Positions 1,594 through 64,000 are shown, numbered from the stretch's first letter. The stretch is 64,000 nucleotides of DNA from Thermodesulfobacteriota bacterium (GCA_036834365.1 DAITOA010000001.1:88926-152925); one strand, 5' to 3'. Numbers and translations are program-made. The notes: generated by a model not told the origin, from the sequence alone.

Positions 1594-3390
1594 ATGAGCC
1601 GGATAAAGATCCTCTCCCCTGAACTCATCAACCAGATCGCTGCAGGCGAGGTCATCGAGCGACCCGCCTCCGTGGTGAAGGAGCTCGTGGAGAATGCCAT
1701 CGATGCAGGGGCAAAGTCCGTATCCATCGAGGTGAAAGGCAACGGGTGCGAGCTCATCCGTGTCAGCGACGACGGTTCGGGCATGGACGGAGCGGAACTC
1801 GAAACCGCCATCCTCAGGCATGCCACGAGCAAGATCGCCGGGGTGGACGATCTCTTCGCCATCAGGACCCTGGGCTTCAGGGGAGAGGCGCTGCCCAGTA
1901 TACTGTCCGTGAGCAGGTCTATGATCGCAACCAGGCAGGCGACCTCCGAACATGGGAACACCATCGACGTTGAGGGCGGAGCGGTGGTGAAACGCTCGAT
2001 GAAGGGCATGCCGCCCGGCACTACCATCGAGGTGTCGGACCTCTTTTACAACACCCCGGCCCGGAGGAAATTCCTCAAGACCGCGGCCACGGAACAGCGC
2101 AATGTCATTGACGTGATTTCCCGCTACGGCCTTGCCTACCCTTCCCTCAGATTCTCCCTGGACATAGACGGGAGGGTGGTTCTGAACCTGCCCGCTCACC
2201 TGAACCAGGAGGATCGGACTACGGCCGTGCTCGGCAGGAAGCTATCGGGCCGTATGATCCCCTTCCGAAGGGAGATGCCGGGGATAATCGTTCATGGACT
2301 TGCTGCACCCCCCGGAGAGGCCAGGCAGAACAGGACGGGCATCCATGTCTTCGTGAACAGGCGCTCCGTCAAGGATGCCATGCTTGGTGCCGCGGTGATC
2401 GAGGGTTACCATGGCATGCTCATGAAAGGCAGGTATCCCCTGGCAGCGCTCTTCGTGGATATCGACCCTGCAGAGGTGGACGTGAATGTCCATCCGTCCA
2501 AGGCCGAGGTGAGGTTCAGACATGCCGGCGCGGTGTTCGGACTGGTGGCATCGGCCGTCAGGGGGGCCTTGGCGCTTGGAACGACCGGACCCGAAGGGAT
2601 TCCGGCCGGTTTGTCCGTCCCATTGCATGCCGCCGACAGCGGGACCGAAGTCCATGCCGGGTATGGGGGCGGCACCCTGTCATCGAGGTCTCTGGATGCG
2701 GGAGAGGTCCTGTCGGTGGTCTACGGGCCCCGGGCTGCGGCCCGTATGCAGACGGGAAATCTCTTCAATGAAGCACTTCCGGAGGGACAGGACGGTTTCT
2801 CCTTTGCCGGACTTTCCGTTGTGGGTATCCTCCATGCGACCTATGTGCTTCTCCAGGACGAGTCGGCCCTGTATATCCTCGATCAGCATGCCGCTCATGA
2901 ACGGATAACCTACGAACGGCTCATGCGTGTCCATGCCTCGGGCAGCCATGCCGGTCAACAGCTCCTGACCCCCATGGTCCTGGAGGTGAGTGCCCAGGAG
3001 TTCAATGCCTTTACCGAGGCTTCAGATGCCATCGGAGAAATCGGGATCCGCTGCGAGCCCTTCGGCGATTCGGCGATAGCGGTCCGTTCGGTGCCCCAGC
3101 CCCTGGCGGACAAGGATATCCGGGAAGCGGTCTACGGTCTCATCCATGCACTCATGGAGGGCGGACATCGAGGAGACAAGGTCGGAGGAGACCGCGCCGG
3201 GGAGATGCTCGCCACTGTGGCATGCCACGCGAGCATACGTGCAGGCAAGGCCCTTACCCTACGAGAGGCGGAGCATCTGCTGGAGTCGCTCGTGGAGGAA
3301 GGATCTCCCCGGACCTGTCCCCACGGCAGACCCCTGTTCCGGAAGATCACGATCCAGGAGATCGAGCGGTGGCTGGGCAGGAGGACCTGA
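1594..3390 (+). CDS. mutL: DNA mismatch repair protein MutL
   Basis: N-terminus 'MSRIKILSPELINQIAAGEVIERPASVVKELVENAIDAGA' is the canonical MutL GHKL ATPase motif. Length 598 aa with C-terminal dimerisation region. Confidence 0.93.
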   Translation: MSRIKILSPELINQIAAGEVIERPASVVKELVENAIDAGAKSVSIEVKGNGCELIRVSDDGSGMDGAELETAILRHATSKIAGVDDLFAIRTLGFRGEALPSILSVSRSMIATRQATSEHGNTIDVEGGAVVKRSMKGMPPGTTIEVSDLFYNTPARRKFLKTAATEQRNVIDVISRYGLAYPSLRFSLDIDGRVVLNLPAHLNQEDRTTAVLGRKLSGRMIPFRREMPGIIVHGLAAPPGEARQNRTGIHVFVNRRSVKDAMLGAAVIEGYHGMLMKGRYPLAALFVDIDPAEVDVNVHPSKAEVRFRHAGAVFGLVASAVRGALALGTTGPEGIPAGLSVPLHAADSGTEVHAGYGGGTLSSRSLDAGEVLSVVYGPRAAARMQTGNLFNEALPEGQDGFSFAGLSVVGILHATYVLLQDESALYILDQHAAHERITYERLMRVHASGSHAGQQLLTPMVLEVSAQEFNAFTEASDAIGEIGIRCEPFGDSAIAVRSVPQPLADKDIREAVYGLIHALMEGGHRGDKVGGDRAGEMLATVACHASIRAGKALTLREAEHLLESLVEEGSPRTCPHGRPLFRKITIQEIERWLGRRT

Positions 3391-17070: not shown

Positions 17071-18132
17071 CTAGCTGATATTTCTGATGATTCCCTTATC
17101 AAGATTTGTGAGACGCTTGCAAGAATTATCTGTTACCAGCACCATGTCCTCCAGCCTGATGCCGTATCGGCCGGGCATATATACCCCGGGCTCGATGGTG
17201 ATGACCATGCCTTCTTCCAGGAGGTCTTCGGACAATGGCGACACCGTGGGGGCCTCATGGACCTCCCTGCCCACGCCATGGCCGAGGCCGTGTCCGAAGT
17301 AGGAGGAGAGCCCTCCCGAGGCGAGATGATCTCTGGCGATCCTGTCCACGTCGGAGGCCTTCACCCCGGGTGCTACGGCCTTCATGGCCCGGGCCTGGGC
17401 CTCGTGGACCTTCTGGTAGGCCTCGCTGAAGCCGTCCGGCGGAGAGCCGGTGAGCACGGTGACGGTCTGATCGGAGCAGTAGCCGTTATACACGCATCCG
17501 AAGTCGATGATCACCACCTCGTTTCCGCCTATCACCCTGTCCGAGGCTGCTCCGTGAGGCATGGCCGACCTCGTCCCCGAGGCGATGAGCAGTTCGAAGG
17601 ACGTCCCGCTGGCACCCCTTGTCCGCATCTCCCACTCGAGGTCGAGGGACACATCGATCTCCCTGCGGCCAGCGAGCCCTTTCTCCAGGACCTTCTCCAG
17701 GGCCTCCTCGGAGATCGAGGCCGCCTTCCGGACGGCGGCGGTTTCTGTTTCGTCCTTGATGGAGCGCAGGTTCCTGAGCTGGGTCCCCATCGGAGTCATC
17801 TCGATGCCCCGGTAAAGGTCCTTCATCTTCAGGAAGCTGTCGATATCGAGGATATTGGATTCAAGACCCATGGTCTGTACGCCTTCTTCCCTGAGCACTT
17901 CAAGGATGTCCTCCCAGCGCCGCTTGAACTCGCGCACCTCGTCCCGGGTCTCGCCCATCGCCTGGAGGGTGTTGCGCGAATCCACGAACAGGAAGGATTT
18001 CTCCTCAGTGAACAGGTACAGTGCGTCCGAGCCGGTGTATCCGCTCAGATACGTGATGCTTGGACGGGAAAGGAGGAGGATGGCATCGAGCCCCCTGAGG
18101 TATCGGCGTGCCCTGCTAAGCCTTTTTTCCAT
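17071..18132 (-). CDS. pepP: Xaa-Pro aminopeptidase (M24 family)
   Basis: M24 metal ligand region 'YFGHGLGHGVGREVHEAP' and creatinase/prolidase N-terminal domain. Start placed at the ATG at 18132 (MEKRL..). Confidence 0.8.
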   Translation of the reverse strand: MEKRLSRARRYLRGLDAILLLSRPSITYLSGYTGSDALYLFTEEKSFLFVDSRNTLQAMGETRDEVREFKRRWEDILEVLREEGVQTMGLESNILDIDSFLKMKDLYRGIEMTPMGTQLRNLRSIKDETETAAVRKAASISEEALEKVLEKGLAGRREIDVSLDLEWEMRTRGASGTSFELLIASGTRSAMPHGAASDRVIGGNEVVIIDFGCVYNGYCSDQTVTVLTGSPPDGFSEAYQKVHEAQARAMKAVAPGVKASDVDRIARDHLASGGLSSYFGHGLGHGVGREVHEAPTVSPLSEDLLEEGMVITIEPGVYMPGRYGIRLEDMVLVTDNSCKRLTNLDKGIIRNIS

Positions 18133-18559
18133 GCAACTCCCAGACGGCCTCCAGGGCGATCTCGTAGCCAAGGGGCCCCATCCCGGAGATGGTCCCGGCT
18201 GCGATGTCGGAGAAGTAGTTGACCTGCCGGAACGGCTCCCGTGAAGCCGCCTTGCTCAGGTGCACCTCAATGAAGGGGAGGTTCACCGCAAGCAGTGCAT
18301 CCCTCAGGGCAACCGAGGTGTGGGTGTAGCCGCCGGGGTTGATGATGAAGGCGCCGAAGCCCATGGCGGGGGCTTTCTGGATCCTGTCGATGAGCTCTCC
18401 CTCGTGGTTGGACTGGAAGAAGTCCACCTCGACGCCGATGCTCAGGGCTTTGCGCCTGAGGGCCGATTCGATCTCTTCAAGGCTCGTGGCCCCATAGACG
18501 GATGGTTCCCGCTTCCCGAGCAGGTTCAGATTCGGCCCGTTGATCACCAGTATCTTCAT
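18116..18559 (-). CDS. aroQ: 3-dehydroquinate dehydratase, type II
   Basis: 'MKILVINGPNLNLLGKREPSVYG' is the type II DHQase N-terminus. ATG at 18559 overlaps the upstream stop (ATGA). Confidence 0.9.
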   Translation of the reverse strand: MKILVINGPNLNLLGKREPSVYGATSLEEIESALRRKALSIGVEVDFFQSNHEGELIDRIQKAPAMGFGAFIINPGGYTHTSVALRDALLAVNLPFIEVHLSKAASREPFRQVNYFSDIAAGTISGMGPLGYEIALEAVWELHGKKA

Positions 18560-19095
18560 TTCTTCAGCCTCACCAGCCATCCCTCCAGCGTCTTCCTGAG
18601 GTAGAGGTTCTGGACGTTCAAGGCATCCTGGCGGGATGCCTCGTCAAGTGCACCAATGCTGTCCACCTGGGTATAGATGTCCAGGGCCTGCTCGAAGTGG
18701 CCCTGCTGTGCATAGACCTTGGCAAGATCGACGGACGGTTCCCTCATGAGTTCCTCACGGTCGGCTTCCTGTGCCTCGAGGAGGTCCCTTGCCTCGTCGT
18801 CATCGGGATAGAATGCCAGATACCGCTCGAGACATATACGGGCACGGTCCGTATCGCCGCGTTTTCTGTGGATGAGAGCGAGGTAATACATCGATCTGAC
18901 AAGGCTCTGAGCCTGATCAGCGATCTTCTCGAGCACCTCGGCTGCTTCGCCGTACCTTCCGAGCTTGTACAGCGAGATCCCTGACAAGAGTTTGTCTTCA
19001 GGGTTCTTGCGGGTCTTGGCTGCCCGGACGACGTCCAGGAGCCTGCCTTCATCGAAGGCCTTCTGCACTTTCTCTGACGAACCGGCCATACGCAC
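18556..19095 (-). CDS. TPR-repeat protein embedded in the aro operon
   Basis: 179 aa, predicted helical, with TPR-like 34-aa repeats (e.g. 'SLYKLGRYGEAAEVLEKIADQAQ', 'YYLALIHRKRGDTDRARICLERYLAFYPDD'). Confidence 0.55.
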   Translation of the reverse strand: MRMAGSSEKVQKAFDEGRLLDVVRAAKTRKNPEDKLLSGISLYKLGRYGEAAEVLEKIADQAQSLVRSMYYLALIHRKRGDTDRARICLERYLAFYPDDDEARDLLEAQEADREELMREPSVDLAKVYAQQGHFEQALDIYTQVDSIGALDEASRQDALNVQNLYLRKTLEGWLVRLKK

Positions 19096-20611
19096 CTAAT
19101 ATTTGAGAACCAGTAAGCTTTTTAACGGTAACATCACCTACACCCGGAGTCAACACAAAGTGAATGCCTTCGCCGGTGGATTTCTTGTCCGCAAAGATGG
19201 ACTCTCCTATACGGTCCGGATGCGGGTAGTCAAGCTCTTCGAGGGGGTATGCATGCTTTCTGACGAGCCGGAAGATCCGGTCCGCCTCCTTGGGCGGTAC
19301 AAGGCCGAGCTCACGGGAGAGCCAGACGGCGAAGTACATCCCGGCGGACACTGCGCGGCCGTGGCTCATGGCGAACCCATGGGCGTGCTCCACGGCGTGT
19401 CCCAGGGTATGACCGAAGTTCAGGGTCCTGCGGAGACCCCCTTCCCGTTCGTCCCGGCTCACCACCGATGCCTTGTCCCGGACGCACATGGTCACGACCT
19501 TCAGATAATCGAGGTCTCCCGCTGCCTCCAGGTATTCGAACAGCGGGGTGTCCATGATGATCCCGTACTTGATGACCTCTGCCATGGCGTCTCTGATCAG
19601 AGAGGCATCGAGGGTGTCGAGGAACGCCGTATCGCTCACCACCAGAAGCGGCTGGTGAAAGGTTCCCACCAGGTTCTTGCCCTGCCTCACGTCGATGCCC
19701 GTCTTGCCCCCGATGCCCGAATCCACCTGGGCCAGCAGGGTCGTGGGGACCTGCACCACCGGGATGCCCCGCATGAAGATACTGGAGGCAAAGGCCGCCA
19801 GGTCGCCGGTCACGCCGCCCCCGATGGCGAGGCAGATCCACTGCCGGTTCGCCTGTGCTGAGAACATCTCGTCCAGGACATTCTTCAGAAAATCGAAGGA
19901 CTTGGATGCCTCGCCCGAGGGAACCGTCACGACGGCGTTTCTCGTCCCTGTCAGGCAGGAGCGGATTACGGACCCATGGTGAGCCATGACCTGCTCGTCC
20001 ACGAGCGCGAAAAGACCTTCAGGCCGAAGGTGCCGGGACAGGTATCTCCGCATGTCCGGGATGATGCCGCTGCCGATGTGCACCGGATAGGGTGAAGATG
20101 GGGCCAGTACCGGCACCGGGTCAGGGAGTGCATGGGCCCAACCGGCCACCGCATCGACCACGTCCCCGGGGGAAAGGCCATCCGTATCCACGATGAAATC
20201 GGCATCGTCATAGGCCGGGGTTCTTTCCTGGAGAAGACTGCGGGCGTTTGTATCCCACAGGGGTCTTGCAGAATCTTCGGGCACGCGCCCGGACAGTGTT
20301 TCGAAGCCCGCCCGCAGGTGCACGATGTATCCGCTTGCCTTCATGACCGCCCTGTTTGCGGGGTCGACCGGCAGACCTCCGCCTGTGGCCACCACGGCCT
20401 GTATGCCCCGGCCGGCCACGTCGAGGAGGGCATCGTGTTCCAGTACCCTGAAGGCGCTCTCCCCTGCGACGCCAAAGATCTCCCTGACGGAGCTCCGAGT
20501 GCGGGAGCAGATTTCCTCATCGAGATCGAAGAAGGCGCAGCCGAGACGTTCTGCAAGCCTCCTGCCCGCAGTGGTCTTGCCGGCACCCATGAAACCGGTC
20601 AGGAAGATCAT
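19049..20611 (-). CDS. aroKB: Bifunctional shikimate kinase / 3-dehydroquinate synthase (AroK-AroB fusion)
   Basis: N-terminal P-loop 'MIFLTGFMGAGKTTAGRRLAERLG' (shikimate kinase), then the DHQ synthase core 'GGGVTGDLAAFASSIFMRGIPVVQVPTTLLAQVDSGIGGKTGID'. Confidence 0.88.
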   Translation of the reverse strand: MIFLTGFMGAGKTTAGRRLAERLGCAFFDLDEEICSRTRSSVREIFGVAGESAFRVLEHDALLDVAGRGIQAVVATGGGLPVDPANRAVMKASGYIVHLRAGFETLSGRVPEDSARPLWDTNARSLLQERTPAYDDADFIVDTDGLSPGDVVDAVAGWAHALPDPVPVLAPSSPYPVHIGSGIIPDMRRYLSRHLRPEGLFALVDEQVMAHHGSVIRSCLTGTRNAVVTVPSGEASKSFDFLKNVLDEMFSAQANRQWICLAIGGGVTGDLAAFASSIFMRGIPVVQVPTTLLAQVDSGIGGKTGIDVRQGKNLVGTFHQPLLVVSDTAFLDTLDASLIRDAMAEVIKYGIIMDTPLFEYLEAAGDLDYLKVVTMCVRDKASVVSRDEREGGLRRTLNFGHTLGHAVEHAHGFAMSHGRAVSAGMYFAVWLSRELGLVPPKEADRIFRLVRKHAYPLEELDYPHPDRIGESIFADKKSTGEGIHFVLTPGVGDVTVKKLTGSQILGAYGRFVRESAEGLR

Positions 20612-21741
20612 AGACTCTCCCAGTATGTTCTGTGCTCTGCGAAGGCGTCCGCAAGGGCGTCCATGGAGGGCTGGGTGAACCCATCGAGGATGGCGCCCGA
20701 AAGCGCAATGACGGCCATGGCCTCGCCTACCACCGAGGCCGCCGGCACGGCGCAGACATCGGAACGTTCATAGCCTGCCTGCACGGGAGAGCCGTCGCGC
20801 AGGTCAACGGTGGGCAGGCCCCTGGTGAGGGTGGGGATCGGCTTCATGGTGCACCTGATGACCACGGGCTCGCCGTTGGTCATGCCGCCCTCCAGGCCCC
20901 CCGCATTGTTGGACGATCTGGTCTTGGGTCTGGTCGGCAGGATGGGATCGTGTATCAGGGATCCCGGCTTTTCCCCGCAGGCGATGCCGGCGCCGATCTG
21001 GACCGCCTTGATGGCCGGTATGGACATGAGGTGCAGCGTGAGCAGGGCATCGAGCCGTTTGTCCCACTGGGTGTACGAGCCGATGCCCGGGGGAAGACCC
21101 GATGCCGTCACGACGAACTCACCGCCCAGGGAGTCGCCGTCCGCTGCGGCATGGTCGATGGCCCGCTCCATCTCTCCGGTCGCCTTGCCGTCGGGACAGA
21201 AGACGCTCGATGCGTCACGTGCCTGCAGGTCGAAAGGCCCGTCGTAGGCGATGGGCCCGATCCTCGTGACCCATGAACAGACCTCTATCCCCAAGGCGGA
21301 AAGGAAGGACTTCAGCAGGCCGCCGGCAGCCACGCGGCCTGCGGTCTCGCGGGCGCTGGAGCGTTCGAGGACGTCTCTCAGGTCTTTGTGCCGGTACCGG
21401 ACGGCGCCGGCCAGGTCGGCATGGCCGGGCCGCGGTGTATGGAGCTCCCTGCCTGCTTCGATGCGCCAGGGGTCCAGGAACTGCTTCCAGTTCTCGAAGT
21501 CCCGATTCCACACGGCCAGCAGAATCGGGCTCGCCAGGGTGAGGCCTCCCCGGATACCGGAGAGCACATCGACCCGGTCTTTCTCGATGGCCATTCTGCC
21601 CCCCCTTCCGTAGCCGAGCTGGCGGCGGGCAAGGTCGGCATCGATAACGCCGCGGTCCACCCGGAGCCCTGCAGGCAGGCCGTCCAGGAAGGCGAAGACG
21701 CCCCGGCCATGCGATTCACCCGCAGTGTAGAAGACGAGCAT
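20608..21741 (-). CDS. aroC: Chorismate synthase
   Basis: 'MLVFYTAGESHG' N-terminus (compare B. subtilis MRYLTAGESHG) and FMN-binding regions. Start at the ATG at 21741, with GGAGG 5 nt upstream; the track ORF begins at an upstream GTG. Confidence 0.9.
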   Translation of the reverse strand: MLVFYTAGESHGRGVFAFLDGLPAGLRVDRGVIDADLARRQLGYGRGGRMAIEKDRVDVLSGIRGGLTLASPILLAVWNRDFENWKQFLDPWRIEAGRELHTPRPGHADLAGAVRYRHKDLRDVLERSSARETAGRVAAGGLLKSFLSALGIEVCSWVTRIGPIAYDGPFDLQARDASSVFCPDGKATGEMERAIDHAAADGDSLGGEFVVTASGLPPGIGSYTQWDKRLDALLTLHLMSIPAIKAVQIGAGIACGEKPGSLIHDPILPTRPKTRSSNNAGGLEGGMTNGEPVVIRCTMKPIPTLTRGLPTVDLRDGSPVQAGYERSDVCAVPAASVVGEAMAVIALSGAILDGFTQPSMDALADAFAEHRTYWESL

Positions 21742-21772
21742 GAAACCTCCAAACACGATTCAATGGGGTGTG

Positions 21773-21802
21773 ATTATGGTGGATGGAGGCAGGGTTTGTC
21801 AA
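21773..21802 (-). promoter_or_regulatory. Sigma70-like promoter of the aroC superoperon (-35 TTGACA, 18-bp spacer, -10 CATAAT)
   Basis: Minus strand reads TTGACAaaccctgcctccatccacCATAATcacacc, about 30 nt upstream of the aroC ATG. Confidence 0.55.
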
Positions 21803-21844
21803 CAGAGGGCCATAAAAGGTGGGTGGTGCTCTTTCTCCTGTCAA

Positions 21845-21855
21845 GGGGGGGGGGG
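21845..21855. repeat. Homopolymeric G11 tract (C11 on the minus strand) upstream of the aro promoter
   Basis: Read directly as 'tcaagggggggggggatgg'. Flanked by the imperfect 22-bp direct repeats ggtgctctttctcctgtcaagg (21825-21846) and ggttctctttttcctgtgtcgg (21858-21879). Confidence 0.9.
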
Positions 21856-21938
21856 ATGGTTCTCTTTTTCCTGTGTCGGTCGTCTGGAACTCCCATGACA
21901 CCCGATGGAAATGAGAAACTCTCCCCCCTTAAGAATCC

Positions 21939-23840
21939 TCAGAATCTCATCTTCGCCGCAAACCGGTAGGTCCTCCCTGCTACGGGGTAGTAGAACGACC
22001 CCCAGTCCGTCGTGCTCACGTATTCGGGGGATCGGTCGTCCAGGAGGTTGTCCACCTTGAAGGATACATTGGCGTTGGGCCCCACATCGTAGAGAACGGC
22101 GGCATTGACGAGGTACCGGTTGTCGGTCCTCTCCGTGTTGGCCTCATCCTCATAGGCCCTGCCCCTGAGCTGGTAGGAGAGCGTGACGGTCATGGCACGG
22201 TCCGCGATCTCCTCATAGAGATCCGTCTGGAGATTGAGGACCTGAGAAGGCTTCTGGCCGAGCTCGTTTCCCTCGTACTGCCCGCTCTCATAGGTATACC
22301 TGCTCAGGATGTAGTTGGCGGAGAGCATGATGTTTTCCAGGGGCGATGCCCAGACGCTGGCCTCCATGCCCTGGGCGAGCACCTTGTCCACATTGATGTA
22401 GGTGAATGTCTCCGGTTCCGGGTAGTCCATCTTGATGAGGTCGCGGTAGGTGGTGCGGAAGTAGTTTGCGCCGATCCCGAAGCCGTTGAAGGTAACGACC
22501 GGGCCGATGTCGAAGCCCAATGATTTCTCTGGCTCGAGGTCGGGATTTTGGATGAAGGTGTACCAGCTGGAAGGGGCATAGAGCTGCCCCATGGTCGGCT
22601 CGCGGTAACCGCTGCCCGCATTGGCCTTGAGCTGGACATGCCGGAACACTTTCCATGCGGCACCTGTATGGTACGACCACCGCTCGTCGAACTCCGAGCT
22701 GTCATCGTACCTGCCGGTGAGTTCGAGAGAAACGGGATCCAGGTCGATGCCGGTCGAGAGGACGCCGCTTGCCGTGCCCCGGCTATGGACCCCGTAGTCG
22801 TCGCTGTCCATGCGCTCGTGGAGGTATTCCATGGATGGTCTCAATGCAAAGATCCCCACCTTTCTCGCATAGGACAGCGATAAGGCCCGGTCCACCAGCT
22901 TCTGTCTGCTGTCCCCGAAGACGCTCTCAGTGCTCGTGCGGTTTGCAATCATCCACGTCCTCAGCTTCACCGATTCGTTGCCGGATATATCATGGCCGGT
23001 CTCCGCCACGTACATGTCCTGCACGGTGATCACCGAATCATCGGGGGTTATGACGCCTGCAGTCCCCTCACCGCCGGGCGAGCCGTTCTCCTGGATGATG
23101 CGGTTTCCCGTGAGCGAGGTTTTCCACCCGCTTGCGTCGAACACCGCCTTGAACAGGCCGGAGGTGTTCTCATAGCCGTTGTTGTCCCTTCTCGCAGAGC
23201 TGCCGTCTTCCCGCTCATAGCGGAAGTCATAGTCGGCAAATGAACGGGTGAGGTTGGCGAGGATGCCGATCTCCCCTGCCCTCATGCTCAGATGCCCGTG
23301 ATAGAGCCCGTACCCGTAGGTGCCCTGGGACGCGGTGAGCTCATACTCATCCGTGGGAGACGGGTCGGCGGTGACGAGGTTTACCACCCCGCCCATGGCC
23401 GCCTTTCCGAAGACCGCGCTGTTGCTGCCCCTGATCACCTCGATCTGTTCGATATCCGGCATCACGTACCGGGACAGATCCACGATGTCGCCGGTGACCT
23501 GGTTTAAGGGTATGCCGTCGATCATGATGAGGGTCTGCTGGAAGTTCGATCCGCGCACCGACAGGGGCGACGGTGTGGCGCCGCCGTAATCGGAGAGGTC
23601 CACGGAAGAAGCGTGTCGGAGCGTCTCCTCGGTGTCGATGAGGCCTGTGGACTCGGGGCCGACCGTGATGATGTCGGAAAAGGAAGTATCTGCCTTTTCG
23701 ACGACGGAACCCTGCGGTGCATTCTCCACCGTCGGTGTAACGACGATGAGAATTTCGGAATCCGCAGGCAGGAATCTGGGAAAGGTGAAGAGACACACGA
23801 TCAGGAAAAGGAGAAACACGGGTGTAAAACGATGGGACAT
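21939..23840 (-). CDS. TonB-dependent outer-membrane receptor, probably a cobalamin/corrinoid transporter (BtuB-like)
   Basis: 633 aa with signal peptide and N-terminal plug region, a beta-barrel ending in the terminal aromatic 'AAKMRF', and a cobalamin riboswitch in the 5' leader. Confidence 0.85.
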   Translation of the reverse strand: MSHRFTPVFLLFLIVCLFTFPRFLPADSEILIVVTPTVENAPQGSVVEKADTSFSDIITVGPESTGLIDTEETLRHASSVDLSDYGGATPSPLSVRGSNFQQTLIMIDGIPLNQVTGDIVDLSRYVMPDIEQIEVIRGSNSAVFGKAAMGGVVNLVTADPSPTDEYELTASQGTYGYGLYHGHLSMRAGEIGILANLTRSFADYDFRYEREDGSSARRDNNGYENTSGLFKAVFDASGWKTSLTGNRIIQENGSPGGEGTAGVITPDDSVITVQDMYVAETGHDISGNESVKLRTWMIANRTSTESVFGDSRQKLVDRALSLSYARKVGIFALRPSMEYLHERMDSDDYGVHSRGTASGVLSTGIDLDPVSLELTGRYDDSSEFDERWSYHTGAAWKVFRHVQLKANAGSGYREPTMGQLYAPSSWYTFIQNPDLEPEKSLGFDIGPVVTFNGFGIGANYFRTTYRDLIKMDYPEPETFTYINVDKVLAQGMEASVWASPLENIMLSANYILSRYTYESGQYEGNELGQKPSQVLNLQTDLYEEIADRAMTVTLSYQLRGRAYEDEANTERTDNRYLVNAAVLYDVGPNANVSFKVDNLLDDRSPEYVSTTDWGSFYYPVAGRTYRFAAKMRF

Positions 23841-23934
23841 CTGGACACCTCCATGGATTTTTCCCTTGGAGTCTCCACCCGGGTACGCGGGTGTAGTCCG
23901 TACTGCGGATAGGTCTTCTGACTCACGGTCTTTT

Positions 23935-24060
23935 CAGCAGCCTTGCCTTCCCGCTTGCGCAGTGGCATTGAAAGGTCTGCCATGTCCGTTTACAGCGGCG
24001 TCCCCGTCCCGGATTTACACCGGGTTCCCTTGAATCCGCAGCAGGGTGAGGTTTTGATAA
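23935..24060 (-). promoter_or_regulatory. Cobalamin (AdoCbl) riboswitch in the 5' leader of the TonB-dependent receptor gene
   Basis: Minus strand reads ..AAGGGAACCCGGTGTAAATCCGGGACGGGGACGCCGCTGTAAACGG..AATGCCACTGCGCAAGCGGGAAGGCAAGG. This matches the conserved cobalamin-riboswitch core (GGGAA..GGTG.AAATCC..CCGC.ACTGTAA) and the B12 box GCCACTG followed by GGGAAGGC. Confidence 0.85.
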
Positions 24061-24118
24061 CAGACTGGCGTCGGGGGTGTCAAATTATTCTCTTGCACTG
24101 CCTGGAATTCTCTGGCAT

Positions 24119-24202
24119 ATGCGGAGTATGAAGACAGTATCGGCACCCACATATTTCGGCTATTATTTCTGGTTTTACGGGATGTGGCCACCTGTGGGCT
24201 GA
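24119..24202 (+). CDS. Aromatic-amino-acid-rich leader peptide (27 aa: MRSMKTVSAPTYFGYYFWFYGMWPPVG)
   Basis: ATG at 24119 (alternative ATG at 24128), TGA at 24200. 9 of 13 consecutive residues are Tyr, Phe or Trp. Sits 23 nt upstream of an intrinsic terminator in the DAHP synthase leader. Confidence 0.7.
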   Translation: MRSMKTVSAPTYFGYYFWFYGMWPPVG

Positions 24203-24225
24203 ACTGTTCGGATACGAACACACCA

Positions 24226-24261
24226 GGCCGTGGGTGGTCACCTCCCACGGCCTTTTTCTTT
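24226..24261 (+). terminator. Intrinsic terminator (attenuator) in the aroF leader
   Basis: GGCCGTGGG-tggtcacct-CCCACGGCC is a perfect 9-bp GC-rich stem followed by TTTTTCTTT. Located between the leader peptide and the DAHP synthase start. Confidence 0.85.
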
Positions 24262-24314
24262 GGAGGCCCTGGGAAGTGATACACGCGGCTTAGGAAAACG
24301 GAAAGGAGGCCAGT

Positions 24315-25334
24315 GTGATCATTTCTATGAAAAAGGGAGCATCTCAAGAACAGATCGACCACGTCAAAACCCTCATCGAGTCGTTCGGCTACCGGATACA
24401 CGAGAGCATAGGTGAGGAGCGGACCCTGCTGGGGGCCATCGGAGACGAGCGGGGCAAGGAGAGGCTCACCAGTCTGGAAGCCCAGCCCGGCGTCGAGAAG
24501 GTTATCCGCATCCTGAGCCCGTACAAGCTCGCTTCCCGGGAGACCAAGGTCGAGCCCACGGTGGTGGATCTCGGCATGGGGGTGAAGGTGGGCAACAGCC
24601 GCATTGCCGTCATGGCCGGGCCGTGCGCCGTGGAATCAAAGGAGCAGATCATGGAGGTTGCCCGGGCCATCAAGGAATGCGGGGGGCATGTTCTGCGGGG
24701 CGGCGCCTTCAAGCCGAGGACCTCGCCGTATGCGTTCCAGGGCCTGAAGAACGATGGCCTTCTGCTCCTGTCCATGGCGCGTGAGCAGTTCGGCATACCC
24801 GTGGTGACGGAGGTCATGGATGTCGCCCATATCGAGGTCATCCTGGAAAATGCGGACTGTCTGCAGGTCGGAGCCCGCAACATCCAGAATTTCCAGCTCC
24901 TGAAAGAAGTCGGCCGGACGAACAAACCGGTCCTGCTCAAGCGCGGCATGTCGACCACCATCGAGGAATTCCTCATGTCGGCCGAGTATGTGCTCTCGGC
25001 GGGCAACAGTCAGGTGATCATGTGCGAGCGGGGCATCCGCACCTTCGAGACCGCCACCCGGAACACCCTGGATCTCTCGGCCGTGCCGGTGCTCAAGGAG
25101 AAGACCCATCTGCCCGTCATCGTGGACCCGTCGCACGGCACGGGGCACGCCCGCTATGTGGAAGCCATGTCGTACGCCGCCATCGCGGCCGGGGCCGACG
25201 GCCTCATGATCGAAGTTCACCCGCGTCCTGAAGAGGCCCTGTCCGACGGACCGCAATCCCTGCGGCCGGACGAGTTCAAACGGGTCATGGAAGGCGTCAG
25301 GCGGATAGCCAGGGCAGTGGGAAGGGATGTATGA
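24315..25334 (+). CDS. aroF: 3-deoxy-7-phosphoheptulonate (DAHP) synthase, type I-beta with N-terminal regulatory domain
   Basis: N-terminal ACT/FL-like regulatory domain, then a KDSR/DAHPS TIM-barrel core '[43 protein letters not shown]'. GTG start with AAAGGAGG 5 nt upstream. Confidence 0.88.
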
Positions 25335-25377
25335 GGGGCTTGATTCTTCCCTGATTCATCCCTAGTATAGAGGCATT

Positions 25378-25905
25378 ATGGGATACTTTATGCCGGAGCA
25401 TAAGATCGCCGTCAGGTACGGCTCATGTCTTGCAGAGCGTGTGGTCTGCAAGGAGCTGAGCTGGAGCGGCAGCGGCATGTACGACATCAAGACCCTGGCC
25501 GAATTCGATGAAGAGGCGCCGAAAGGCGGGGTCTTCGCCCAGCTCCTGCGCGTGGAGCCGTTGAGGTCCACTCTGCCCCCCCACTACCGGGTCTGCCTGC
25601 AGGACAGGGAGATCCTGGATTTCGTGGAGGGGAACCTGGATATTGACCTTGTGTCGCTCATCACCTACATCATGACCCACGAGCTGCTCCATATCCACCG
25701 TTTCGCCACCGGCAAGGCCGATTTCTTCGGCGAGAGCAGGGACGAGGAGGTCATGGTGGATGCCCTCACGCGGGTCTTCCTGGCCAAGAACCCGGTCATC
25801 GGACTGAAAAGGGTGCTGTCCCTCCTTGACAAGATCGCGGCGGCGCCACTATATAACGACCACATCCTGAAAAACGAGCAGAGGTGCGTCAATGCCTATC
25901 TATGA
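25378..25905 (+). CDS. Hypothetical HExxH-motif protein (possible SprT/WLM-like zinc metallopeptidase fold)
   Basis: 175 aa. The only motif is 'ITYIMTHELLHIHRF' (HEXXH). No signal peptide. Confidence 0.4.
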   Translation: MGYFMPEHKIAVRYGSCLAERVVCKELSWSGSGMYDIKTLAEFDEEAPKGGVFAQLLRVEPLRSTLPPHYRVCLQDREILDFVEGNLDIDLVSLITYIMTHELLHIHRFATGKADFFGESRDEEVMVDALTRVFLAKNPVIGLKRVLSLLDKIAAAPLYNDHILKNEQRCVNAYL

Positions 25906-26170
25906 ATACCGGTGTCTGAAATGCAACCATGAGTTCGAGGCCATGCAGAAGTTCAGCGATGCCCCCCTGAGCAAGTGCCCGTCCTGCGGTGGCAAGGCCA
26001 AGAGGCTCATATCCCGTTCGTCCTTCCAGCTCAAGGGCTCGGGGTGGTATCTGACCGACTATGCCAAGAAGGGTTCGCCCCGGGACATTCCGGAGAGCAA
26101 GTCTTCGTCGGATACGTCCTCGGATGCTCCTACCCCCTCTTCGACCACGTCATCGAGCGATGACGACTGA
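25892..26170 (+). CDS. FmdB-family zinc-ribbon protein
   Basis: 'MPIYEYRCLKCNHEFEAMQKFSDAPLSKCPSCGG' has the CxxC...CxxC FmdB signature, with an acidic Ser/Asp-rich tail. Overlaps the upstream ORF by 14 bp. Confidence 0.8.
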   Translation: MPIYEYRCLKCNHEFEAMQKFSDAPLSKCPSCGGKAKRLISRSSFQLKGSGWYLTDYAKKGSPRDIPESKSSSDTSSDAPTPSSTTSSSDDD

Positions 26171-26178
26171 AGGCTGAA

Positions 26179-26652
26179 ATGGCTCTGACCCATCTCGACA
26201 GGAAGGGCCGCGTCAGCATGGTGGATGTGGGTGAAAAGACAGTGACCCGCAGGGCCGCCAGGGCGAAGGGAATCATCCGGATGAGTACGGATGCCTTTGC
26301 CGCCGTGATGTCCGATTCCGTGAAGAAGGGAAATGTCCTGGCAACGGCGAAGATAGCCGGGATCATGGCCGCAAAGAACACGGGCACCACCATCCCTCTC
26401 TGTCACCCGCTCCCCATAGAGCACATCTCCGTCGATTTTCACCCGGACGAGTCGTCGTCTTCCATCGGGGCCGAGGCCACGGTGAAGGTGTCCGGCAGGA
26501 CCGGTGTCGAGATGGAGGCGCTCCACGCCGTAACCGTGGCCCTGCTCACCATCTATGACATGGTCAAGGCAGTGGACAAATCCATGACCATCGGGGAGAT
26601 CCGGCTGGAAGAGAAGTCCGGCGGGAGAAGCGGGCACTACAAACGGAAGTAG
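26179..26652 (+). CDS. moaC: Cyclic pyranopterin monophosphate synthase accessory protein MoaC
   Basis: 'LTHLDRKGRVSMVDVGEKTVTRRAARAKG..' MoaC family, 157 aa. Confidence 0.88.
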   Translation: MALTHLDRKGRVSMVDVGEKTVTRRAARAKGIIRMSTDAFAAVMSDSVKKGNVLATAKIAGIMAAKNTGTTIPLCHPLPIEHISVDFHPDESSSSIGAEATVKVSGRTGVEMEALHAVTVALLTIYDMVKAVDKSMTIGEIRLEEKSGGRSGHYKRK

Positions 26653-26747
26653 TCCCTCGCAGTAACGGGGATGCGGCGTCCGCCGCCCCTGTGAGACAAC
26701 CCTTTGACTGTCCCTTAAGGAGCGGCGACCGCTGCGGATTGAATACG

Positions 26748-27410
26748 CTACTGCGTCAGGGGTGCGAGCTGGAGCTCGACCCGGCGGTTCTGCTGGCGGC
26801 CCGCCTCGGTGTCGTTGCTGGCGATGGGCCTGGATTCGCCGAAGCCCTGGGTGACGACCCTTCTCCCGTCCACACCCTGCGAGATGAGGTACTGGCCGAC
26901 GCTGGCGGCGCGGCGCTCGGACAGGGTCTGGTTGTAGGCGTCACTGCCCACGCTGTCCGTGTGCCCGTAGACGTCGATGAGGGTCTTGTCGAACTCCTTG
27001 AGCACCAGGACCACGGAGTTGAGGACATCATAGAAGCCCGCATTGATATCGGAGCTGTCGGTCTTGAAGGTGACGTTGCCCGGCATGTTGAGGATGATGT
27101 TGTCCCCCTGCCTGGTCACGCTCACCCCGGTGCCCTGGAGCCTCTGCCTGAGCTTGTCCTCCTGACGGTCCATGTAGTAGCCGACCCCTGTCCCGGTGAG
27201 GCCTCCCACTCCGGCACCGATGAGGGCTCCCTTGCGTTTGTCCTTGCTCACCGCGGCCCCGACGGCGGCACCGCCCGCGGCCCCGATGAGCCCCCCTATG
27301 GCCGCCTTGCTCAGCTTCTGCTCTCCGGTATACGGATCGGTCGTGCAGCCGCCCTCGAAGAGAAACAGAGCCGCCACGGCAATCACGAGACCATAACTTA
27401 CGATGCGCAT
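26748..27410 (-). CDS. OmpA-family lipoprotein with glycine-zipper region
   Basis: Signal and lipobox 'LFLFEGGC', Gly-rich zipper 'GGLIGAAGGAAVGAAV', and a C-terminal OmpA domain 'DSVGSDAYNQTLSERRAASVGQYL'. ATG at 27410 is preceded by a G-rich RBS. Confidence 0.75.
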   Translation of the reverse strand: MRIVSYGLVIAVAALFLFEGGCTTDPYTGEQKLSKAAIGGLIGAAGGAAVGAAVSKDKRKGALIGAGVGGLTGTGVGYYMDRQEDKLRQRLQGTGVSVTRQGDNIILNMPGNVTFKTDSSDINAGFYDVLNSVVLVLKEFDKTLIDVYGHTDSVGSDAYNQTLSERRAASVGQYLISQGVDGRRVVTQGFGESRPIASNDTEAGRQQNRRVELQLAPLTQ

Positions 27411-27544
27411 TGTCTTCCCCCCTTTTCTATTCCGATATACGGGCGATGAAAAACCCGTGAACATCATGATTCAGCGGTTTCCGCTATGTACATAATAATC
27501 GTGAACAGCCGGGCTTTCAACAGGATTCCGAAGACACTGTCCGG

Positions 27545-28137
27545 TCATCCGGCATGAGCGAGGAGGCGCTCGCATTCCCTGACGATATCCGCATGCACCG
27601 CATCGCGGTCCTTGCCCGCATCGATGACCCTGTGACGGCTGTTCCGGGAGATGGTTAGGAATGCCTCCCTCAGCCTCCGGTGATACTCGATCCCCTGCCG
27701 CTCGAACCGGTCGGACGGGTCGATCCGCGCCAGCGCACGTTCCGGATTCAGGTCCATGACAAAGGTCAGGTCGGGTTCGACCCAGGTCCCGCTCATCTCC
27801 ATGAGGGATCGGACCCTTTCCAGGCCTATACCGCCCATGATACCCTGATACGCGAGGGTGGAATCGACGAACCGGTCGATGACGATGATCCTGCCGGAAG
27901 CCAGTCCGGGTTCGACGATCTCTCTGAGGTTCTGCCTCCGGGAGGCGAGGATCAGCATGAGCTCCGTCATGACGTCCATGCTTCCGCCCAGGAAGAGGCC
28001 GCGGATCTCCTCGGAAAGAGAAGAGCCGCCGGGCTCCCTTAAGGAGAGCCACGGCAGCCCTTTTCCGGTCAGAAAGGAGCAGAGGCGGGAGGCGTTCGTC
28101 GTCTTGCCGGCCCCCTCACCCCCTTCAAAGGTAATGA

Positions 28138-28141
<4 letters not shown>
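27545..28141 (-). CDS. tmk: Thymidylate kinase
   Basis: 'MIITFEGGEGAGKTT' P-loop and the dTMP kinase fold. Overlaps the ppdK stop by 4 bp. Confidence 0.9.
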
Positions 28142-30810
<2,669 letters not shown>

Positions 30811-63084: not shown

Positions 63085-64000
63085 TCGTTCTTGTCTCCCT
63101 GTGGTTCGGACGTGTCCTTGATGTTCCAGAGTTCGGTGGGCCGCTTATCATAGCCTGTAGTCCGTATCAGCCTGAACCCTCTGGACTGGAGAAGTTTCTG
63201 CACGTCCGAGCCGTCCCTGCCGTTGAAATACAGGACATATGGTGTACTCCCCGCATTGACCATCCCCTCGAACCGCTTCCAGTCCGGAATGGATTCCGCC
63301 CTGAATCCCCCGTAAAAGGAGCTGAAGGCCAGGGCCGTCTCGCTCAGGTTGTACCCCATGACCCGCTCGTTTCCCACAATGGTGCCTGCATACCGGAAAA
63401 AGGGGCGATAACTTTTGATGACATCCACCTGGTGGAAAAGAACCGGGGACCAGGTAAGCAGCAGCAGAGCCCAACAGGCAGCCAGTCTTTGGGGCAGGGT
63501 GAACATGCGCGACCCGAGCATGGTTCCCAGGAAGAGCGCCGACAGGAGAGATGCCAGCAGTGTCATCTGCCATGACCCGCCGAGCTTCGCATGAAAAGCG
63601 ATGGGGACCATGATGAATACGAGGCCGGTGAATGCCCCGGGCAACCAGGTGGCCCACCGCCGTTCTACCGGCCGTACATCCTCGGGCATGCGTGACAGCC
63701 ATACCCCCACGACGGCGGCCATGGCCGGGTACAGGGGAAGGATGTAGAGCCCGCGTTTCGTGGAGGCGATGCTCAGGAGTATGAATCCGCCGAAGAACCA
63801 GCTGTAAAAGAACCGGAGGCGTGTATCGGGCCTCCTCAGGAAGACGGTCGCCGGGATCAGCAGGAGCGACCAGGGCAGCCCCTCGGTGAAGATGACCTGC
63901 AGATAATAGTAAAGGGGACGCACGTGGCCGCCCTGGTAAACGCCCACGTCCATGAACCTGCCCAGGTTGTTGAACAGGAAGAAGGTGAAAAGGAAATCCG
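63081..64000 (-). CDS. ArnT-like (GT83/GT39) polytopic glycosyltransferase, copy 2; 5' end beyond window
   Basis: Frame is open to position 64000 ('DFLFTFFLFNNLGRFMDVGVYQGG..'). Hydrophobic C-terminal half has the typical GT39/GT83 architecture. First gene of the arn operon as seen in this window. Confidence 0.65.
   Translation of the reverse strand, partial: DFLFTFFLFNNLGRFMDVGVYQGGHVRPLYYYLQVIFTEGLPWSLLLIPATVFLRRPDTRLRFFYSWFFGGFILLSIASTKRGLYILPLYPAMAAVVGVWLSRMPEDVRPVERRWATWLPGAFTGLVFIMVPIAFHAKLGGSWQMTLLASLLSALFLGTMLGSRMFTLPQRLAACWALLLLTWSPVLFHQVDVIKSYRPFFRYAGTIVGNERVMGYNLSETALAFSSFYGGFRAESIPDWKRFEGMVNAGSTPYVLYFNGRDGSDVQKLLQSRGFRLIRTTGYDKRPTELWNIKDTSEPQGDKNE

Follow-up and report, generated by a model that had tools for sequence, protein, structure and literature searches.

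We analyzed a 64,000-nucleotide (nt) stretch of DNA from a Thermodesulfobacteriota bacterium (GCA_036834365.1 DAITOA010000001.1:88926-152925), referred to here as the window, with positions counted from its first letter. Upstream of a gene for 3-deoxy-D-arabino-heptulosonate 7-phosphate (DAHP) synthase, the window carries a leader that is very probably a ribosome-mediated (leader-peptide) transcription attenuator controlling that gene. The leader consists of a short open reading frame (ORF) rich in Tyr, Phe and Trp codons (24128-24202, + strand), an intrinsic terminator (24225-24261, +) and an antiterminator that overlaps both. The parts, their conservation among relatives, the alternative pairings and the geometry of the whole are established by computation. 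An earlier sequence-only reading of the window had proposed such an attenuator layout; all of its parts are present and are kept in every testable relative, and the proposal stands with a corrected start codon.

Leader ORF, its family and its putative promoter

The leader ORF ends at TGA 24200-24202. Read from ATG 24119, as in the sequence-only reading, it encodes MRSMKTVSAPTYFGYYFWFYGMWPPVG; read from ATG 24128, the start that is conserved among relatives, it encodes a 24-residue leader peptide, MKTVSAPTYFGYYFWFYGMWPPVG (24 codons plus TGA). The nine aromatic codons previously counted within 13 consecutive codons are indeed there. All stop-free 13-codon windows in the six frames of the whole 64 kb were scanned, and among roughly 95,000 of them every one with nine (n = 2) or eight (n = 4) Phe, Tyr or Trp codons falls inside this ORF, which therefore holds the most aromatic 13-codon stretch in six frames. 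Since the top-scoring windows all lie within a single ORF, the aromatic run is not due to chance. Within the ORF is a putative regulatory codon block, YFGYYFWFY (24152-24178, +; four Tyr, three Phe and one Trp codons), the top aromatic stretch of the window. Aromatic codons account for 9 of the 24 codons of the leader, versus 6.9% in the window's confident genes. The next most aromatic stretch of 13 codons, RLRFFYSWFFGGF at about 63780-63821 (-), has 7 of 13 aromatic residues and is probably part of a membrane protein.

Relatives were collected from genomes, where a scan for DAHP synthase with one genome per species gave 80 loci, and from metagenome contigs, where an exact pattern covering the ORF end and a terminator arm gave 33 matches. 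The 24 closest genome loci (68-93% protein identity) belong to metagenome-assembled genomes (MAGs) titled Deltaproteobacteria, Thermodesulfobacteriota, Desulfomonilia or "Syntrophaceae UBA", and all 24 have the leader arrangement; 23 are complete, and the other one (L019) is cut by a contig end and keeps the ORF end and the terminator. The aromatic ORF is found in 29 of the 33 metagenome matches, the remaining four having neither ORF nor DAHP synthase and being chance matches. DAHP synthase starts 94-123 nt after the leader stop in 28 of these 29 loci; the remaining contig is too short to show it. The metagenomes that yielded family loci come from digester, sludge, wetland and peat. With a profile built from the aligned leaders, nhmmer was run on 846 kb of sequence (the window plus all 113 loci). 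Each family locus gave a single full copy, as did the window (24128-24266); the rest of the 846 kb had no copy, the 56 more distantly related DAHP synthase loci included, and weak reverse-strand matches correspond to the palindromic terminator. ORF, terminator and a place directly upstream of a type Iβ DAHP synthase, at 94-123 nt, are thus shared by 24 genome loci and 29 metagenome loci of Desulfomonilia-like "Deltaproteobacteria", as expected on the proposal of the sequence-only reading.

The aligned leaders (24 sequences for the codon analysis and for the test of region 1:2 described below, 35 distinct sequences for the other pairing tests) behave as an ORF that is read as codons, and it is from these coding signatures that translation is predicted. 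The ATG and the TGA are present in every complete member, with ATG, frame and TGA kept in the 23 complete genome relatives and the 29 metagenome loci, and all length differences are indels in multiples of three. Aromatic residues fill 160 of the 166 positions in the seven aromatic columns. Tyr and Phe replace one another at five columns (TAT, TAC, TTT, TTC), and in the aromatic columns the first base is always T, the second A or T, and the third T or C. The minor Tyr codon TAT, which constitutes 31% of the Tyr codons in genes of the window, supplies 41 of the 43 Tyr codons found in the two core Tyr columns of the leader. The consensus peptide is M-x(3-4)-S-A-x(2)-(Y/F)(Y/F)-G-YYFWF-x(2-5)-PPVG-stop, 22-25 residues in length, with a freely variable N-terminal third and with YYFWF and the C-terminal PPVG highly conserved. 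Each member carries 6-11 aromatic codons, and 22 of the 24 leaders include a Trp codon, the two lacking it being L018 and L020.

A putative promoter lies directly upstream of ATG 24128. Its -35 element, TTGCAC (24093-24098, +), represents a TTGnnn motif that is fixed in 35/35 aligned members and stands 17 nt upstream of a -10-like hexamer, CATATG (24116-24121), preceded by TG (24113-24114) and G; together the latter would form an extended -10 element (24113-24121, +). The -10 element was located by anchoring on the -35 element with a 16-18 nt spacer, an unanchored finder being noisy and yielding spurious hexamers. On this basis, TGn precedes a (C/T)ATA(T/A/G)N hexamer in 29/35 sequences, and the gap between the -10 element and the conserved ATG is 6-7 nt in about 30 of the 35 distinct sequences, a count that includes hand correction of two out-of-frame ATG picks and one mis-anchored -35 element. 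ATG 24119, which the sequence-only reading had taken as the start, was rejected: it is not conserved, lies inside the conserved -10 hexamer CATATG and is in frame by coincidence. Transcription usually starts seven nt after a -10 element. The 6-nt gap leaves no space for a Shine-Dalgarno sequence before ATG 24128, and from this together with the 6-7 nt gap we infer that the first nucleotide of the RNA is probably the A of ATG 24128 or one adjacent to it, and that the leader peptide is probably made from a leaderless mRNA. A leaderless mRNA begins at the A of its start codon or within about 1-2 nt of it and has no Shine-Dalgarno sequence; the promoter geometry (-35 element, 17-nt spacer, TGn plus -10 element, 6-7 nt to the ATG) would place the start there. 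The promoter of a cobalamin riboswitch on the opposite strand is divergent from the leader promoter, and the two must share about 70 nt at 24055-24127.

Alternative RNA structures and the proposed switch

The intrinsic terminator follows the ORF. Direct reading verified its description in the sequence-only reading, including a 9-bp stem, a U-tract, a ribosome-binding site and spacings of 23 nt (ORF to stem) and 53 nt (to the DAHP synthase start). The perfect 9-bp stem joins GGCCGTGGG (24226-24234) to CCCACGGCC (24244-24252), with the U-tract TTTTTCTTT (24253-24261) directly 3' of it. The stem extends to 12 pairs with one U-U mismatch and a UCA loop (24225-24253, arms GGCCGUGGG and CCCACGGCC). 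It is paired across the alignments, with 95.7-96.9% of alignment cells paired (24 and 35 sequences) and 42-64% in slid controls (35 sequences); one U-A pair is replaced by C-G in 6/35 sequences, and the terminator is the sole long helix in the RNAalifold consensus. A simple terminator scanner did not flag the hairpin, the 9-bp reading having a 9-nt loop and the scanner a limit of 8. No plus-strand gene ends upstream, the neighboring TonB-dependent receptor gene being on the minus strand, and the plus-strand terminator therefore sits within a 5' leader.

Four regions of the leader take part in alternative pairings. Region 1 (24136-24171, +) would be the 5' strand of a predicted anti-antiterminator. 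Region 2, GUGGCCACCUGUGG (24184-24197, +), is the 5' strand of the antiterminator and overlaps the last codons W-P-P-V-G. Region 3, CCGUGGGUGGUCAC (24228-24241, +), is identified by folding and by alignment pairing as common to the antiterminator and to the 5' arm and loop of the terminator, in which it pairs with region 4. The minimum free energy (MFE) fold of the free window RNA contains a helix between regions 1 and 2 together with the terminator. When a ribosome is masked over the early aromatic codons, the antiterminator appears, with region 2 and region 3 joined by 14 bp and the helix extended by GGGA (24179-24182) with UCCC (24243-24246). Exclusive antiterminator and terminator structures, which had not been resolved by eye in the sequence-only reading, were thus found by folding and are accompanied by compensatory changes. 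The antiterminator encloses a small hairpin, UGUUCG-GAUA-CGAACA (24205-24220, +), with 87% of cells paired and changes on both sides at three of its six pairs; it probably nucleates or stabilizes the antiterminator. The hairpin GTTCGGATACGAAC, formerly placed at 24205-24218, lies at 24206-24219.

Together with its enclosed hairpin, the antiterminator has 88.6% of cells paired vs 37-52% in slid controls, none of 500 shuffles reached its paired percentage or its covariation score, and its core pairs are kept in 33-35 of the 35 sequences. Compensatory changes occur in L021 (CUACC with GGUAG) and in L024 (three altered pairs). The positions concerned fall in the terminator loop, and they therefore support the antiterminator specifically. 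The same two members are those in which Pro-Pro is changed (LP in L021, LS in L024); because the loss of PP comes with compensatory RNA changes, the near-invariance of PPVG is attributed to RNA pairing, and PPVG as a primary peptide-level signal was rejected. Region 1:2 has 78.5% of cells paired vs 33-45% in slid controls, with covariation above all 500 shuffles. Several of its pairs are broken in many sequences and RNAalifold keeps only a 4-bp core in which UGGU (24170-24173), containing the Trp codon, pairs with GCCA (24187-24190); it is the weakest supported of the three structures.

The antiterminator has a mean predicted stability of -28.9 kcal/mol, the terminator one of -22.4 kcal/mol. 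Co-transcriptional choice was modeled by folding only the RNA between the leading edge of the ribosome (A-site +13 nt, assumed) and the end of region 3. An earlier masking scheme had allowed pairing between the RNA on either side of the ribosome, with odd folds at late stalls, and everything 5' of the edge was then masked. The antiterminator formed in 35/35 sequences at A-site positions as far as the final codon of the aromatic block, except that three sequences lacked it at the first one or two codons; it never formed at about the last six to eight A-site positions, stop included. The second Trp codon of the window leader (24185-24187) is outside this stall-permissive zone.

We propose that the leader would operate as follows. 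The promoter would start the RNA at the A of ATG 24128 or immediately beside it, and the 24-codon leader would be translated without a Shine-Dalgarno sequence. With Tyr-, Phe- and Trp-tRNAs all charged, the ribosome would reach the last codons and UGA 24200-24202 and cover region 2, leaving region 3 to pair with region 4; the terminator and U-tract would form, and transcription would end ahead of DAHP synthase. If any one of the charged tRNAs were scarce, the ribosome would stall within YFGYYFWFY, masking region 1 and leaving region 2 free to pair with region 3 once the latter is made, aided by the hairpin at 24205-24220. With the antiterminator formed there would be no terminator, and RNA polymerase would read into DAHP synthase. 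In the absence of any translation, region 1 would pair with region 2 and the terminator would form.

Weighing the proposed attenuator against other explanations

Several points weigh against this mechanism. The transcription start, the reading of the ORF by ribosomes and a response to aromatic amino acids are predicted from sequence and from comparison among relatives, and leaderless translation in a Deltaproteobacteria-like lineage is a prediction from promoter geometry. Trp sensing is not universal in the family, given L018 and L020. In equilibrium folds of the full-length leader with the ribosome masked, the terminator is so stable that it is the MFE structure at every stall position in 15/35 sequences and the antiterminator appears in only about 20/35; the decision must therefore be kinetic (co-transcriptional), as in classical attenuators. 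The boundary of the stall-permissive zone depends on the assumed footprint (A-site +13 nt). The pairing statistics are inflated, because the members are related to one another and a single member supplied the structures, and only a few pairs show true double-sided covariation.

Attenuation also leaves unexplained a conserved block after the terminator, GGAGGCCCTGGGAAGTGATACACGCGGCTTA (24262-24292, +). It is conserved in close relatives, with GCC-N-GGG and CGGCC recurring in distant ones, resembles region 3 and the 5' arm of the terminator, and could pair with region 4. In members whose DAHP synthase starts with GTG, the block is predicted to pair with the start-codon region (CACAC/GUGUG and AAGUGA/UCAUUU), with too little variation among sequences to weigh this pairing. 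RNAalifold found no consensus structure between terminator and start codon, either family-wide or in the ATG-start subgroup. The block may add translational control.

Among other explanations, the one that survives best accepts the switch as real and treats the ORF as incidental, with control by, for example, a small-molecule riboswitch ligand, a T-box-like tRNA or an RNA-binding protein. It would account for the conservation of regions 2 and 3 and of the hairpins at the nucleotide level, third codon positions included, and other DAHP synthase loci do seem to use protein- or RNA-based leaders, for example the (G/U)AG repeats of L025 and L047 described below. We regard it as very unlikely, since an incidental ORF is at odds with the three-base periodicity of the aromatic block, the Tyr/Phe exchanges that keep the aromatic class, the invariant ATG and TGA with in-frame indels, and a stall-permissive zone that ends at the last aromatic codon in 35/35 sequences. 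Searches for the corresponding regulators also speak against it. When 24080-24330 was compared with Rfam by cmscan, admitting E up to 10, the only matches were two at chance level to unrelated families; neither T-box nor any leader family (Trp_leader, Phe_leader, His_leader, Leu_leader, Thr_leader and others) matched. The same comparison of 20000-30000 at E up to 1 gave a cobalamin riboswitch on the other strand only. Repeats of the type bound by the trp RNA-binding attenuation protein (TRAP), that is, 9-11 (G/U)AG triplets with 2-3 nt spacing that overlap an antiterminator, were absent from 24100-24314 by inspection.

The ORF could instead be an independent small gene, ended by the terminator, for a functional hydrophobic or aromatic peptide; DAHP synthase would then depend on a promoter of its own or on read-through without regulation. 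The high conservation of the peptide, YYFWF and PPVG included, would suit such a gene, and some leader peptides act in trans, such as peTrpL (PMC7298713). The N-terminal third is freely variable, however, and the PP changes in L021 and L024 are matched by the RNA partner, which indicates that C-terminal conservation is driven by the RNA. Among the loci searched, the element occurs only ahead of DAHP synthase; a promoter scan showed no plus-strand promoter-like site in 23000-26000, including the 53 nt between the U-tract and DAHP synthase; and an antiterminator overlapping the end of the ORF would be purposeless. We consider a separate small gene less probable still.

Equally hard to credit is an arrest peptide, in which the nascent aromatic chain followed by Pro-Pro-Val-Gly-UGA would halt the ribosome or slow termination (TnaC-like with free Trp, or an elongation factor P (EF-P)-dependent Pro-Pro pause) and hold it over region 2, causing transcription to terminate when free aromatic amino acids are abundant. 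PPVG-UGA is nearly invariant, a ribosome held at the stop would cover region 2, and a logic in which the amino acid turns expression off is self-consistent; on the other side, RNA pairing alone accounts for the PPVG codons, with compensatory changes accompanying PP loss, no likeness to known arrest peptides was seen (a by-eye judgement with no search behind it), and plain attenuation requires no arrest. Its fullest form, in which such a peptide is combined with obligatory coupling from the leaderless 5' AUG and the switch would read free amino acid or EF-P status plus the charged-tRNA pool, appears just as improbable; if arrest did occur, free amino acids as well as charged tRNAs would be sensed. 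Leader-peptide attenuation governed by tRNA charging remains by far the most probable reading.

Genomic context and comparison with known systems

The regulated gene (24315-25334, +) begins with GTG at 24315 and encodes a 339-residue DAHP synthase of type Iβ (Pfam PF00793, E 8.5e-84) with an N-terminal ferredoxin-like regulatory domain (PF18152, E 3.7e-21). Its Shine-Dalgarno sequence, AAAGGAGG (24302-24309, +), was read directly and is conserved in the alignment. The ferredoxin-like domain is a known allosteric feedback site in Thermotoga-type DAHP synthases, and by analogy it would add a second layer of control beside the leader switch.

On the minus strand, a cobalamin riboswitch (RF00174, 23891-24054, 91.4 bits, E 3.8e-22) precedes a gene for a TonB-dependent receptor (Plug plus beta-barrel, 21939-23840), a BtuB-like arrangement. 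Beyond the receptor gene lie chorismate synthase (20608-21756, -), a shikimate kinase/3-dehydroquinate synthase fusion (19049-20611, -) and an ORF (18116-18580, -) that resembles type II dehydroquinase by eye; the six-frame aromatic scan flagged no aromatic-rich leader ORF near these minus-strand shikimate genes (18116-21756). Downstream of DAHP synthase are a 175-residue ORF without a Pfam match (25378-25905, +), a zinc-ribbon protein (PF09723, 25892-26170, +) overlapping it by 14 nt, and a MoaC gene (26179-26652, +).

Other leaders were seen at the more distant DAHP synthase loci. Two of these loci carry a second aromatic leader family, unrelated to that of the window: L039 (57-58% identity) has the Tyr-rich MKCSVLQSGLYQDYYWYYYYVTCGGD at about 2834-3000, and L051, from a Desulfomonilaceae MAG, has MTSFRSNALFFAFWGYYYYPTPSGG at about 2831-3000. 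Each possesses a Shine-Dalgarno sequence, the two have in common a terminator, AAAATGCGGAGCAAGCGCTCCGCATTTTTTATTTT, unrelated to that of the window, and an upstream GCGCUCC copy of the terminator 3' arm could act as an antiterminator. It seems that aromatic leaders evolved repeatedly in these bacteria, either independently or by divergence. Two Firmicute loci carry (G/U)AG triplets with 2-3 nt spacing just upstream of DAHP synthase: in L025 (about 2880-2990) these are GGTAGGATGGTAGAATGGTAGGGTGAATG, followed by a terminator-like hairpin, and in L047 (about 2920-2965) they are TATGGTAGTATGGTAGTACGGTAGGAAGTAA. As judged from sequence, the pattern resembles TRAP binding sites.

Classical attenuators include trpL, pheL (pheA) and hisL, and the multivalent thr and ilvGMEDA leaders have mixed codons (Yanofsky 1981). 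Like enterobacterial attenuators, the window leader has a 2:3 antiterminator, with a predicted 1:2 anti-antiterminator, and a 3:4 terminator, with the regulatory codons in or just before region 1 and the stop close to region 2, and, like the thr and ilv leaders, it would sense more than one amino acid through mixed codons. Unlike enterobacterial attenuators, it lacks a Shine-Dalgarno sequence, is apparently leaderless and has no Rfam leader match; it would control the shared first enzyme of the pathway instead of a terminal branch, and three cognate residues occur within one block. The sequence-only reading had called a mixed aromatic leader unusual. This was too strong in view of the thr and ilvGMEDA leaders and of a Phe-Tyr-Phe leader on a DAHP synthase gene, and what holds of it is that three residues in one block are less common.

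The closest functional precedent is aroR-aroF of Corynebacterium glutamicum, first noted in PMC4046766, where the DAHP synthase gene is preceded by a leader peptide with Phe-Tyr-Phe as regulatory codons (PMC11802643, PMC4046766, PMC7356990). Both have aromatic leader codons before a DAHP synthase gene. Read-through at aroR rises through ribosome stalling under Phe limitation and not under Tyr limitation, according to the account of Neshat et al. 2014 given in PMC11802643. The C. glutamicum ilvB leader is made without a ribosome-binding site (Morbach et al. 2000, as cited in PMC4046766). While aroR belongs to the Actinomycetota, the family described here is from Thermodesulfobacteriota-like MAGs, its aromatic run is longer (6-11 codons) and usually includes Trp, and its enzyme is of the Iβ type with a ferredoxin-like domain, unlike the C. 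glutamicum case. The two are likely of independent origin, the comparison being one of function rather than of sequence. Leaderless leader peptides have been described in Deinococcus deserti, with 14 predicted (PMC4007540), and leaderless polycysteine short ORFs in mycobacteria, as outlined in bioRxiv 10.1101/834739. As in these cases, the short ORF of the window leader would begin at the 5' end of the transcript, with a -10 element a few nt upstream of the AUG; in D. deserti and mycobacteria the start was mapped by RNA-seq, whereas in the window it was deduced from promoter geometry, and lineages and target genes differ. A literature search for aromatic attenuators in Deltaproteobacteria found nothing.

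The family, with more than 50 members and not in Rfam, adds to the catalogue of leader-peptide attenuators and leaves the general understanding of attenuation unchanged. Uncultured, environmentally widespread anaerobes probably control entry into the shikimate pathway in this way, and such control would join a transcriptional switch reading the supply of Tyr, Phe and usually Trp to an enzyme with an allosteric domain. The family also suggests the existence of leaderless leader peptides beyond Actinobacteria and Deinococcus, and its compact element of about 135 nt could act as an aromatic amino acid sensor. Set beside known systems, it is an undescribed leader family of a well-known kind, whose apparently leaderless start, three cognate residues in one block and placement at the entry enzyme are less common features, each with precedents.

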